This document shows, piece by piece, positions 49,586 through 56,145 of a stretch of 64,000 bases of DNA. Position 1 is the stretch's first letter, and each line of letters begins with the position of its first letter. The notes beneath the pieces were generated by a model. It worked only from the letters and a program-made list of their open reading frames with translations. It had not been told where the DNA came from and did no database searches. The position numbers and the translations under genes were made by a program. The DNA is taken from positions 96,001 to 160,000 of IMG/VR virus record IMGVR_UViG_3300012979_000027. One strand, written 5' to 3'. This DNA comes from a virus. Taxonomy: Duplodnaviria > Caudoviricetes.

Positions 49586-50485
49586 CTAACCGGCATTTTT
49601 CACAAAGTTGGGAAGATATGAGAAATCAGGTTGAGGCATCTGCACAATTTCCAACTTGAACTTATTCTGCTTATACTTCTTTCTAATCTTTTCTTTTACT
49701 TCATCATCTCCCTTGTTGAAACGAATAAAGTCATCAATCTGTTTATAAGTAATACCAAGTCGTTCTTCATCAGATTGAGGCTGAAGGCCATCAGCAGGAG
49801 TTTTGTCAATTAGTTCAATCAGTCGTTTATGACCATCTACGGGGTAAGTTTGCCAAGACATATCAGCCATTCTTTCCTTGACAGAAGTATCTTCTAACAT
49901 TTTTTTATTATAAAGTAAAGTAGCAACATAGCAACCTAAGTGCTTTACCTCTGTTACTGTTAATCCTTGAATAGGAGCATACGACCCTGCATTATCGCCA
50001 AATTGTGTGGCATAACCAACCATATCTTCTGAAAGATTGGAAGTATTGATAACACGACCACCAATACATTGACCAACAGCATGAAGTGTAGACATGCGGA
50101 TACGAGCAGGAAGATTGATTTCCATGTCCTTATTAGGATAAACATTATCCATTGAGCGTCTATCCCAAATCTGTTTTGTGATAGCATCCACACTCTCAGC
50201 AATGTTGATAATAGAATGAGAAATACCAAGAATTTTTACCACGTCAAAACTATCATGAATATCAGACTGTGTTCCTTGTGGCATCAATACACCGTGTACT
50301 CGTTCCTTACCAAAAATGGAAACAAGTAATGCAGCTACAACTGTACTGTCTTTACCACCACTAATACCAACAACAAATTTATCAGCGTTCGTAATTGAAG
50401 CCCATGTCTTCAAATGTGTTTCAATGGTTGCATATACCAACTCTAAATTAAAATCATATACTTTCTTTTCGTTCATATTTTCCAT
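49586..50485 (-). CDS. nadE: NH3-dependent NAD+ synthetase
   Basis: GISGGKDS, NLPARIRM, SNLSE..VGY.T.FGD, PADGL and SDEERLG. Confidence 0.93.
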   Translation of the reverse strand: MENMNEKKVYDFNLELVYATIETHLKTWASITNADKFVVGISGGKDSTVVAALLVSIFGKERVHGVLMPQGTQSDIHDSFDVVKILGISHSIINIAESVDAITKQIWDRRSMDNVYPNKDMEINLPARIRMSTLHAVGQCIGGRVINTSNLSEDMVGYATQFGDNAGSYAPIQGLTVTEVKHLGCYVATLLYNKKMLEDTSVKERMADMSWQTYPVDGHKRLIELIDKTPADGLQPQSDEERLGITYKQIDDFIRFNKGDDEVKEKIRKKYKQNKFKLEIVQMPQPDFSYLPNFVKNAG

Positions 50486-50515
50486 TATCTTATTTTTGCT
50501 TAGTTGAGGGTAGTG

Positions 50516-50707
50516 TCATACTCCCCTCTTTTTTCTTCCAAAAAGTCTATCATCTGTAAGTTTTCTGAAATACGCAGCAGTAGAGTGACATTTGAATGTG
50601 CATGTTTCGTTTCTCTTTTCTTCAAGAATATAATGAGTTACAAAAAACTTGATATTTCGCCATCTCATTTTTCTTCGCCAAAAGATGTCACGATTTTTCA
50701 TACTCAC
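50516..50707 (-). CDS. Small hypothetical protein
   Basis: 63-aa ORF overlapping the upstream stop. Confidence 0.45.
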   Translation of the reverse strand: MSMKNRDIFWRRKMRWRNIKFFVTHYILEEKRNETCTFKCHSTAAYFRKLTDDRLFGRKKRGV

Positions 50708-51099
50708 AGATTTTCATCAATGGTTTCACGACTTGTCTCAAATTCTTTCGTTTCATCTAAATCCTTCCAAAGATTTACTGTAACAGTTCCATCATCATTA
50801 TATTTCAATGCTCTTTTAACACGAAAAAGGGTTCGTTCTAACAAACAGGTTTTATCAATAATATCAGAAATAGTAAAATCTTTATCAAATTCAGTTTCTT
50901 TATTGAACTTATAACCATCTTCATGGGTATATGCTTGTGCTAATAATGATGCAATGAATTCAACGCTTTCTCGCTTATTAACATCAAAATGCTTTTCAAC
51001 ATTATAATTTGTAATGTAATATTTTGCAAATTTAATTACACTAGGTTGTTTTTCTAACCAAGCAATATATTCAAAATACTTCTTTTGTTTTTCTTCCAT
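50704..51099 (-). CDS. Hypothetical protein ending in a NAMPT-like RETIDENL
   Basis: 131-aa ORF. Confidence 0.65.
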   Translation of the reverse strand: MEEKQKKYFEYIAWLEKQPSVIKFAKYYITNYNVEKHFDVNKRESVEFIASLLAQAYTHEDGYKFNKETEFDKDFTISDIIDKTCLLERTLFRVKRALKYNDDGTVTVNLWKDLDETKEFETSRETIDENL

Positions 51100-51106
51100 A
51101 AGTTAA

Positions 51107-53810: not shown

Positions 53811-53868
53811 AATTTTAGTAATTTTAACTTATAATTTAATTTTATGCAAGTTCTGTCAGGGCCTTAGT

Positions 53869-54705
53869 TTAACGTCCTGACAAATCAATTTCAATTACTT
53901 TCTTTTCGCTGAATATCTTTAGAGTATCTGCAGTATGAATTTCATCAATAATTCCATTTGCATTAGAATTATAAAAATCCTTAGATTGCGGCATCATGTG
54001 AGTGATGTAAAGGTCCACTTTCTTTGCTCCCATTTTACGAAGCGCAGTGGCTGCTTCTCTAAAGGTTCGTCCACCAGCACAAATATCATCGATAATCAGA
54101 ATTCGTTTATCCTTAATATCTTCCTTTTCAGCAATGACTTCATACGAAACAATTTCACCCGTCTTAAGGTCACGCTTCTTGTCGCCAAAACGATAAGGAG
54201 ACTTGAAGAGTTCACTATACTTCTTCGCTGCTCCTGCATCAGGATAGAACATAAGATCATAAGGATTTTCCTCATTGAGATGAACTTCTGCTTCCAAGAA
54301 AGACTTAACAGGATAATTCACATGACAATGCTTTAGCAAAGCAGGAAGTACATTACTGTGTGGGTCACATATGTAAACTGCTCTGAAATTCAAATCATTG
54401 ATAATCTCTGCCACATACTTCAAACTAAACAAATGAACACCTGTGTCTCTATCCATCTGCCCATAAGGGAAGAAATCAATAACAAGTCTTGCCCAATTGT
54501 TAGGATAAGCATCATCCCACCACTTCTTAATAACCTGAAGATTGAACAAGTCCTCATTGCTTTCATAAACAACTTTGAACTCATCCCAACAAGGTTCTTC
54601 AAAAGGAACAGGACAGGTTGCCTTTAGCCTATTAGCAGAAACATAGTCAACTTCATTGTTAGGGAAGCGACTCTGTACTACATTTATTCCATTAAACGTT
54701 ACCAT
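53869..54705 (-). CDS. Ribose-phosphate pyrophosphokinase-like protein (Prs/Adps family)
   Basis: FPNNE, PYGQMDR, DPHS, YPDAGA and IIDDICAGGRTF. Confidence 0.92.
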   Translation of the reverse strand: MVTFNGINVVQSRFPNNEVDYVSANRLKATCPVPFEEPCWDEFKVVYESNEDLFNLQVIKKWWDDAYPNNWARLVIDFFPYGQMDRDTGVHLFSLKYVAEIINDLNFRAVYICDPHSNVLPALLKHCHVNYPVKSFLEAEVHLNEENPYDLMFYPDAGAAKKYSELFKSPYRFGDKKRDLKTGEIVSYEVIAEKEDIKDKRILIIDDICAGGRTFREAATALRKMGAKKVDLYITHMMPQSKDFYNSNANGIIDEIHTADTLKIFSEKKVIEIDLSGR

Positions 54706-54710
54706 GATTT

Positions 54711-55508
54711 TTACTTTTCTTTTTTCTCAAAAAATTTACAAACATCATTATCAGATACAGTTTTATAACCTTTATGTCTTCCGCTATATCTATTAGCAGG
54801 ATACCAAACCATATTTTCCTTTTTAAGGCATTCACCAACTATCAATGAACCATGAGTAGGAGTTTCAGAAAAATACTTACAAAGAAAACAGTTTCTGCCC
54901 AAAGAGCTTTCCATCGGAATAGTTAAGTTATAATTCTTTTCAATATAATTCATCAACAACTGTGCATAATGTTCTGCGCTATCTACTTCCGAAGGAATAC
55001 TACCATAATCTGCAAGTTCACCTTGAATTAAAACATCTGCTTTACGATGAAAATCTTTGTGTATTGCTACAAAAACGTCATTTTTACGTAGCTTATCAAA
55101 ATCATCTATTTCAATTTTTTTTCCCAGTGCTCTACCCATTTCATAAAAACAGATAGGTTGTGGCGAAGGAGAATTGGAAAAATACATAGAGAAAAGAACA
55201 CGAGGAGTATTCAAATATTTGAATTCCCATTCAATTTGCTCTCTAGTAGCATTAGGATTAGTTACATCAAAAGAATCTCTACGAGGGTTAAGAAAAATAA
55301 TACCTCGTTCGTGTTTCCAATTTTTCTTAAAATAGTTAATGACAACTTTTTGCCATTCCTCACAATTAGTGATGCCACCTGCTAAAAATACAGGAATAGC
55401 AAACACTAAATTATAAGACGCAAGTTCAACATCTTCAGGGCAAGTAACGACTGTTACTTTATTTGCAAAAAGCTCCTTTGCTTTTTTTGCGTAAGAATTA
55501 TAGAACAT
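54711..55508 (-). CDS. Nucleoside 2-deoxyribosyltransferase-like protein with C-terminal Cys cluster
   Basis: VFLAGGIT.C..WQ, LNPRR, QIEWE and PICFYEMG; probable start MFYNS. Confidence 0.8.
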   Translation of the reverse strand: MFYNSYAKKAKELFANKVTVVTCPEDVELASYNLVFAIPVFLAGGITNCEEWQKVVINYFKKNWKHERGIIFLNPRRDSFDVTNPNATREQIEWEFKYLNTPRVLFSMYFSNSPSPQPICFYEMGRALGKKIEIDDFDKLRKNDVFVAIHKDFHRKADVLIQGELADYGSIPSEVDSAEHYAQLLMNYIEKNYNLTIPMESSLGRNCFLCKYFSETPTHGSLIVGECLKKENMVWYPANRYSGRHKGYKTVSDNDVCKFFEKKEK

Positions 55509-56145
55509 AACTTTCAGATTTCTCAATATCAATCTGACAGCAACCCATTGTAGTGAGGGCCGCCTTATGTGTATCTTCAGTAACACATGCACACAAATCC
55601 TCAAGAACAGTAATCTTCATATCAGGGAACAAACCACGAATATAGAGAGCATTAGATGCTACGCAAATACCCGTGCAAAAACCCATAAGTACAATCTCGT
55701 CAATCTCATGAGACATATCCATTTTGATATCCTTCATGAAATTACCAATGTGTCTGCCAAGGTAATACGACATAAAGGTATGCTTATCATAAATTCTATG
55801 AGGAGTAACGTGCTTCATCACCTCTTCATCAATCTCCCATCCCCATGTGTCCTTTATACAATGCTCAACGGGGAGCTTCTTACCCTCAAGAGTGTTTTCA
55901 TACCAGCAAGCTTCTGAAATTTCACTACTCCACTTCTTACCGTCCTTTTCAAACTCATCACCAACACTTTCCTTGTTGAAGTGCGTGTCACGGGTAGCCC
56001 AAATACCAACAGTATCTTCCTTGTCCTTTACCATAGAAAGGAACTTGGCAATGTTAGGAGTTACACGCTTAGCCCAATCAGAACCAAGACTTCCACTAAT
56101 GAAGTCGTTCTGAACATCAATTACAATATAAAGCTTTTTTGTCAT
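55498..56145 (-). CDS. pncA: Nicotinamidase (isochorismatase family)
   Basis: VIDVQNDFISGSLG, TRDTH, PVEHCI..T.GW, K.TF and GFCTGICV.SNA. Confidence 0.92.
   Translation of the reverse strand: MTKKLYIVIDVQNDFISGSLGSDWAKRVTPNIAKFLSMVKDKEDTVGIWATRDTHFNKESVGDEFEKDGKKWSSEISEACWYENTLEGKKLPVEHCIKDTWGWEIDEEVMKHVTPHRIYDKHTFMSYYLGRHIGNFMKDIKMDMSHEIDEIVLMGFCTGICVASNALYIRGLFPDMKITVLEDLCACVTEDTHKAALTTMGCCQIDIEKSESYVL

Follow-up and report, generated by a model that had tools for sequence, protein, structure and literature searches.

The gene cluster described here lies in a 64,000-nucleotide stretch of viral DNA (the window), which corresponds to bases 96001-160000 of a single 208,368-bp tailed-phage record (IMGVR_UViG_3300012979_000027, Caudoviricetes) with an estimated completeness of 99%. 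Window positions 49586-56145 are filled by eight open reading frames (ORFs), all on the minus strand. The first gene of the unit encodes a PncA-like nicotinamidase of 215 aa (55498-56145). It is followed by a nucleoside 2-deoxyribosyltransferase-like gene (Nuc_deoxyri_tr2-like, here NDT-like; 265 aa, 54711-55508), an Adps-type homologue of Prs, predicted to be an ADP-ribose diphosphokinase (278 aa, 53869-54705), a Namat/NAMPT-like transferase, predicted to be a nicotinate ADP-ribosyl transferase (598 aa, 52014-53810), and, beyond a homing endonuclease gene and two small ORFs, an NH3-dependent NadE of 299 aa that has no glutaminase domain (49586-50485). Five co-oriented genes of these types had been described in an earlier note made from the sequence alone, and all five are present on the minus strand at the positions given there. 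No paralogue of any ORF of the cluster occurs elsewhere in the genome, and a megablast search of sequenced phages with the cluster gave no match. The cluster is interpreted below as a candidate route by which the phage would rebuild NAD+ through nicotinate.

The core of this cluster is found in other phages. Phass-1, a code-15 gut phage unrelated to T4, carries genes for nicotinamidase, Prs, NAMPT, a 139-aa ORF and a NadE-like protein, in that order. Scans of IMG/VR with PncA and with a Namat alignment yielded 92 loci, to which hidden Markov models (HMMs) of the four proteins PncA, Adps, Namat and NadE were then applied. At least two of the four proteins were found together in 56 loci, Phass-1 and the window included, and all four in 52. 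Two gene orders were observed, PncA-Adps-Namat-NadE and Adps-Namat-NadE-PncA. The four proteins co-occur on unrelated backbones at 28-45% identity, and the contigs that carry the module range from fragments up to 434 kb. Among the partial modules, L022 and L024 stand at contig ends and L073 is short of one gene only. Locus L070 (7950-11100) contains NadE, PncA and a Namat of the Ala type described below, with no Adps within the flank of ±8 kb, and may represent a split variant or one that uses phosphoribosyl pyrophosphate (PRPP). Because the core genes recur together in over 50 IMG/VR loci as well as in Phass-1, coincidence can be dismissed as the reason for their clustering.

The transferase is the central enzyme of the module. 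Its best solved relative is the Namat of phage SpbetaL1 (9w5x, E = 1e-80), and the numbering of 9w5x agrees with residues D13, Y15 and R40 of SpbetaL1 Namat as given in PMC12774641. For comparison, 94 Namat/Nampt homologues were aligned, 56 from loci linked to PncA and/or NadE and 38 from loci with neither; the unlinked set includes the Namats of a Felixounavirus phage and of phage K and a KVP40-like Nampt. The catalytic core is retained in the window enzyme as F190, R193, H243, R311 and D313 (human F193, R196, H247, R311 and D313) and is invariant in 94 of the 94 homologues. The equivalents of E246, G353, D354, G383, R392 and D393 are likewise invariant in both sets, so that both the catalytic and the ribose-phosphate positions are conserved. 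An insertion of about 97 aa is present at residues ~325-420, at the same site as the insert of a Felixounavirus Namat, and the two inserts align poorly with each other. An intein was considered as the source of these extra residues and was ruled out by the continuous reading frame and by the site shared with the Felixounavirus Namat.

The pyridine pocket differs between the two sets of homologues. The substrate specificity of NAMPT is set by Asp219 (PMC7096376), and among mutants of the human enzyme D219S is recorded as a change that switches substrate affinity, D219A as one that inactivates (PMC4919578). The corresponding D215 of SpbetaL1 Namat hydrogen-bonds nicotinamide, and its replacement by Ala cuts NAD+ formation about 8-fold. 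The alignment of the window enzyme runs without gaps from F190 (human F193) to S216, so that S216 stands for human D219 and SpbetaL1 D215. At this position the linked loci contain Ala (47) or Ser (9), in 56 of 56 cases, and the unlinked loci contain Asp (37) or Glu (1), in 38 of 38. When the alignment was scanned column by column, the remaining positions that discriminate perfectly between the sets also proved to be pocket residues. The position of human H191 is His in all 38 unlinked enzymes and Gly, Ala or Cys in the 56 of the module set (C188 in the window); that of G217 is Gly in 38/38 and, in the module set, Asn, Lys or Arg with one Leu and one Val (N214 in the window); and that of A244 is Ala in 38/38 and Ser in 56/56 (S240 in the window). 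The simplest reading of an Ala/Ser enzyme that is constantly paired with nicotinamidase and NAD synthetase genes is that it uses nicotinate.

A quick maximum likelihood tree was built from 61 sequences after dereplication. Of the 29 that belong to the module, 27 fell into one clade with an SH-aLRT value of 99, and the Namats of Phass-1 and L070 appeared as unresolved long branches. The association nevertheless shows that the linkage to PncA and NadE has held through deep divergence, with branch lengths of more than one change per site, as well as through a change of gene order and transfer between unrelated backbones.

The enzymes at the two ends of the module carry the signatures of their families. 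The PncA-like protein matches Pfam Isochorismatase (E = 4e-20), and among solved structures it is closest to yeast Pnc1 (2h0r, E = 4.7e-13). Alignment to yeast Pnc1 places the catalytic triad at D10, K121 and C161 and the metal ligands at D53, H55 and H95, and all six residues are invariant in 57/57 PncAs of the module. The score of the window protein against the NCBIfam PncA equivalog is 23 bits, far under the cut-off of 174. In close relatives (L178 and L180, both 5096-6001), PncA has a C-terminal tail resembling acyl carrier protein (ACP), with a DSLDEVE motif and a weak PP-binding match; the L180 module also holds a free PP-binding gene and an HD-domain gene (7699-8265 and 8457-8759). NadE scores 142 bits against TIGR00552 (cut-off 63.65) and matches Pfam NAD_synthase with E = 3e-43. 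It is a single domain with the SGGxDS motif of ATP pyrophosphatases (GISGGKDS), which is kept in 56 of 57 module NadEs. Judged by these intact signatures, PncA and NadE look functional. Because it has no glutaminase domain, NadE needs free ammonia, and the NH3 released by the nicotinamidase as a by-product may feed this reaction.

The gene next to the transferase resembles the kinase of NARP1, the NAD+-rebuilding pair Adps and Namat of phages SpbetaL1, Bas63 and Fado (bioRxiv 10.1101/2024.02.11.579819; structures in PMC12774641 and PMC13586617). The Prs homologue matches phrog_619 with 207 bits; the same family contains the Adps proteins of a Felixounavirus phage (333 bits) and phage K (305 bits), which belong to pairs of the NARP1 type. 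Its scores are under every curated Prs cut-off (77.5 bits for TIGR01251, cut-off 113). An HMM built from canonical NARP1 Adps proteins only scored the window protein at 205 bits and E. coli Prs at 124.5. In the PP loop the window protein has DDICAGGRTF, the Adps of the Felixounavirus phage DDICDGGRTF and the Prs of E. coli DDMIDTGGTL; by its sequence, the loop of the window protein fits the Adps pattern and not that of Prs. The Adps-like and Namat-like genes are 58 nt apart, which conforms to the signature of NARP1, an Adps-clade homologue beside a Namat homologue.

Evidence on the ribosyl donor comes from the transferase itself and from its neighbours. In NARP1 the clamp that selects for ADPR-PP is marked by Arg40 of the SCL and by the SCH motif GSX.X.X.TRD, in which the third and seventh positions are aromatic. 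The window transferase keeps the clamp Arg (R37), the first aromatic (GSF485) and the TRD, and its motif reads GVGSFSFQ, as compared with GGGLLQ in Nampt of the KVP40 type. Of the 56 modules, 33 have a Macro gene that separates Namat from NadE (L011, 12470-13009; L033, 9708-10181; L019, 9722-10180; and 30 more loci). These genes resemble Adpp, the ADPR-1''-phosphate phosphatase of NARP1-AP, and would tie the module to the chemistry of ADP-ribose (ADPR). Five other records that bear the module have no match to PF01467, the family of NadD/NadM/NadR-type adenylyltransferases; one of these is complete Phass-1, and the others are estimated to be 100% (two), 90% and 53% complete. The earlier note had named ADP-ribose pyrophosphate (ADPR-PP) as the donor, with PRPP in brackets. 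On the strength of the Adps family, the largely retained Namat-type clamp, the Macro genes and the module records free of PF01467, ADPR-PP would be favoured over PRPP.

Taken together, these features suggest a nicotinate-type version of NARP1, in which NAD+ would be rebuilt through nicotinate, ADPR-PP and nicotinate adenine dinucleotide (NaAD, deamido-NAD); this reading is held to be probable, with considerable room for doubt. A defence NADase would split NAD+ into ADP-ribose and nicotinamide. The phage nicotinamidase would then convert nicotinamide to nicotinate and NH3, and the Adps-type kinase would pyrophosphorylate ADP-ribose to ADPR-PP. The Namat-like enzyme, which does not have the amide-binding Asp, would join nicotinate and ADPR-PP to form NaAD, and the NH3-dependent NadE would amidate this product to NAD+, with a second ATP consumed. 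The route would need no adenylyltransferase. The nicotinamidase, kinase and NadE steps are predicted by homology to characterised enzymes; the transferase step is a putative reaction that was found in no paper. The deamidated route proposed in the earlier note thus gains support from the loss of Asp at S216, a loss that accompanies PncA/NadE linkage without exception over the 94 homologues, from the three residues that switch with it, from the six PncA residues and from the NadE score above its cut-off. Its further suggestion that NaAD may escape some of the NADases received no support from this analysis.

The absence of an adenylyltransferase bears directly on this route, and here the earlier note was borne out for the window, in which no PF01467 match was detected. 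It had also asked whether an NMNAT lies elsewhere in the genome. No clear Nmnat was found; the possibility is kept alive by the sole PF01467 match in the 208-kb genome, a weak one of 27 bits to a 203-aa protein (genome 171886-172497; L001, 1432-2043). This protein, a HIGH-family nucleotidyltransferase, has the motifs HxGH (PHKGH) and SASDFR. Its AlphaFold2 (AF2) model (pLDDT 85) matches phosphopantetheine adenylyltransferase (PPAT) with a Z score of 15.9, NadD with 13.9 and NadM with 13.7, so the modelled fold does not separate PPAT from NadD or NadM. All NadD models scored it far under their cut-offs, and it had no match in sequenced phages. An ACP domain, which would link the protein to CoA/ACP metabolism, was sought in the genome and was not found. 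The family is common in viral contigs that have no module nearby, and the protein is absent from the flanks of ±8-9 kb of all module loci. The conserved module does not include it. In the genome as a whole there was also no match to Nudix, Macro (PF01661) or PnuC (PF04973), and no NadR-like PF01467 protein.

Several observations weigh against the route through NaAD. The window transferase has a 12-aa insert before the TRD, which replaces the stretch of the second clamp aromatic (SpbetaL1 Y396), and most module Namats have a loop of 7-25 aa in place of this aromatic; with the second aromatic disrupted, a preference for ADPR-PP is not assured. The best solved relatives of NadE are nearly tied between 2e18 (E = 8e-25), an enzyme of the NaAD type, and 3fiu (E = 4e-24), which we take to be a Francisella enzyme that prefers nicotinate mononucleotide (NaMN). 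The genome also encodes the 203-aa protein, a possible adenylyltransferase. NadD is, to our knowledge, universal in hosts and could complete a route through PRPP and NaMN. The placement of most module sequences in one clade means that the perfect correlation with Asp loss rests on one to three evolutionary origins. Finally, the extra ATP spent on the detour through nicotinate would bring no explained benefit. Several of these points would suit a phage-borne Preiss-Handler pathway, in which PncA yields nicotinate, the Prs-like protein supplies PRPP, the NAMPT-fold enzyme forms NaMN as a nicotinate phosphoribosyltransferase, host NadD or the 203-aa protein adenylylates NaMN to NaAD, and NadE completes NAD+. 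The changes in the pocket point to nicotinate and are silent on the ribosyl donor, SpbetaL1 Namat itself still accepts PRPP according to the literature, the 203-aa model fits NadD and NadM only slightly worse than PPAT, and a few homologues of that protein have automatically been named NaMN adenylyltransferase. However, the Prs homologue is of the Adps type, the clamp Arg and the first aromatic are kept, unlike in Nampt, and ADPR-directed genes lie inside more than half of the modules. The 203-aa protein lies about 12 kb past the end of the window and 20 kb from the module, is missing from the flanks of the module loci and is widespread without the module nearby, and five other module-bearing records have no candidate of its family. 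The NaMN route is accordingly considered rather unlikely.

Ordinary NARP1 would explain the pair of Adps and Namat in another way: nicotinamide and ADPR-PP would give NAD+ directly, and PncA and NadE would be unrelated genes that boost host salvage, or the whole set would boost NAD+ without a role in counter-defence. The adjacency of Adps and Namat is indeed the NARP1 signature, and NadE occurs alone, without the module, in cyanophages and jumbo phages. The window enzyme has Ser at the D219 position, and Khan and colleagues are said to have found in 2006 that the human D219S mutant keeps some use of nicotinamide. Most members have Ala, however, the residue that inactivates human NAMPT and lowers the activity of SpbetaL1 Namat, and across the aligned loci PncA/NadE linkage and a missing amide-binding Asp go together without exception. 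A nicotinamidase in the same operon would also remove the nicotinamide that such an enzyme needs, and the PncA gene is translationally coupled to the next gene. Ordinary NARP1 is for these reasons regarded as very unlikely, and the nicotinate-type version of NARP1 is retained as the preferred reading.

The gene to which PncA is coupled encodes the NDT-like protein. It starts at ATG 55508 (TTG 55604 is not the start) and overlaps the end of PncA, stop codon included, by 11 nt. The protein matches Pfam PF15891 with 45 bits and has a Cys-rich C-terminal tail. The order PncA, NDT-like, Adps-like is kept in relatives, whose NDT-like proteins (L178 and L179, 6001-6801; L180, 6001-6873) are 48-57% identical and whose Namats are 77-84% identical to those of the window. 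Most modules are without this gene. Weak homologues occur near three canonical NARP1 loci (L059, 9711-9995; L061, 5200-5457; L080, 6706-7059), and the protein may be a recurrent NARP accessory enzyme. The best PDB match of its AF2 model (pLDDT 78) is 4mcj, an uncharacterised NDT-like protein of Parabacteroides, followed by TIR domains and RCL/DNPH1. The motifs FLAGG, QIEWE and YE[LM]GR are invariant, with conserved Glu residues in the latter two. From this model and these motifs, we read the protein as a putative N-glycosidase or transferase, an accessory of this lineage. A broader claim is evenly poised between acceptance and rejection: that the NaAD-forming Namat-like enzyme, PncA and NadE constitute a distinct pathway, free of adenylyltransferase and of nicotinamide and widespread in gut and large phages, and also that, in this T4-like lineage, the NDT/TIR-like N-glycosidase of the operon supplies the pathway with ADP-ribose or a pyridine base cleaved from some other molecule derived from NAD.

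Three more ORFs, to which the earlier note does not refer, separate the Namat-like gene from nadE. One encodes a free-standing HNH/NUMOD3 homing endonuclease of 282 aa (51107-51955, minus strand), which matches Pfam NUMOD3 (E = 8.5e-14) and the homing endonuclease family phrog_655 (E = 1e-29). The closest related locus, L003, has no such gene, and the endonuclease is probably a mobile element that inserted here and takes no part in the pathway. A hypothetical protein of 131 aa (50704-51099, minus strand) has no Pfam, NCBIfam or PHROG match; its ORF occupies the position of the Macro gene in many other modules. At the same position, L002 (Phass-1, 7784-8203), L020 and L021 (9722-10147) and L027 (9685-10146) encode a protein of 139-153 aa with a DFDDTV motif (DxDxT, HAD-like) and no Pfam match, which may be a different phosphatase. 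Membership of the 131-aa ORF in the Macro family or in this 139-153-aa family was ruled out by hhalign probabilities under 1%. The smallest ORF (63 aa, GTG start, 50516-50707, minus strand), which comes from the ORF list only, has no Pfam, NCBIfam or PHROG match and is of uncertain coding status. In one relative, L178, an IS605 OrfB/TnpB-like gene (11778-12801) follows the Namat-like gene, at a place where a near-identical contig has NadE.

The cluster is set among replication and recombination genes of the T4 type. These include a DnaB-like helicase (37147-38523), a UvsX-like RecA (40733-42199), a family B DNA polymerase (45034-47727), a gp46-like Rad50 (47731-49542) and a gp47-like Mre11 phosphoesterase (57199-58251). 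The NAD cluster, together with two ORFs on the opposite strand (56188-57181), separates the gp47-like gene from the gp46-like gene; in T4, genes 46 and 47 are adjacent. A scan for promoters and terminators gave no more sites than shuffled sequence and did not define the transcription unit. Elsewhere in the window, the G+C content drops to 0.21-0.23 at 22000-28800, from about 0.33 in the rest; this stretch covers three large plus-strand ORFs (22171-25536, 25538-26779 and 26727-28736).

Comparison with known systems places the cluster close to NARP1, with which it shares an adjacent Adps-family kinase and Namat-family transferase, a Nampt-like catalytic core, the clamp Arg, the first aromatic and an insertion at the site used in a Felixounavirus (Bas63-like) Namat. 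It differs from NARP1 in the nicotinamide-binding Asp, which is Ser in the window, and in three more pocket residues. Moreover, a nicotinamidase and an NH3-dependent NadE go with every pair of the window type, whose transferase is predicted to yield NaAD rather than NAD+, at the expense of one more ATP. NARP1-AP, which combines Adps, the Macro phosphatase Adpp and Namat (bioRxiv 10.64898/2026.01.28.702374), is similar as a NARP1 extended by an accessory, and Macro genes are likewise common inside the nicotinate-type modules; the window genome, in contrast, has no Macro gene, and its accessory is the deoxyribosyltransferase-like protein. With NARP2 of Vibrio phage KVP40, composed of Nampt and a bifunctional Nmnat/Nudix protein, the window shares a NAMPT-fold transferase that would rebuild NAD+ in a T4-like phage. 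The window genome, however, has neither Nudix nor a clear Nmnat, the motif of its transferase is of the Namat type, and a Prs/Adps homologue is present. Neither component of NARP3, the PnuC transporter and the NadR-like enzyme, is found in the window genome. The Preiss-Handler pathway (PncA, PncB, NadD, NadE) has in common the deamidation of nicotinamide, a deamido dinucleotide and the final amidation by NadE. It differs in its transferase, since that of the window belongs to the NAMPT/Namat family and not to PncB (21.7 bits for TIGR01513, cut-off 297), and in that the window module has no linked NadD and includes an ADP-ribose kinase homologue. Literature searches on NaAD with ADPR-PP, on nicotinamidase in NAD+ reconstitution, on NARP4 and on Namat with nicotinic acid turned up no account of such a route, and a survey of NAD-ADPr functions in viruses mentions neither PncA nor NadE (PMC9503650).

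Bacterial defences against phages commonly end in the depletion of NAD+, and three routes by which phages rebuild it have been described as NARP1, NARP2 and NARP3. If the nicotinate-type reading is true, the module would constitute a fourth route, based on nicotinate, and its transferase would represent a new activity of the NAMPT fold, that of a nicotinate ADP-ribosyl transferase. The many phage NAMPT homologues with a neighbouring nicotinamidase, an enzyme that seems to destroy their substrate, would also be accounted for. For annotation, the distinction between Asp and Ala/Ser at the D219 position, together with the changes of His to Gly, Gly to Asn/Lys and Ala to Ser at the three other pocket sites, would offer a simple rule. 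The route may further show how phages cope in hosts that deamidate nicotinamide rapidly.

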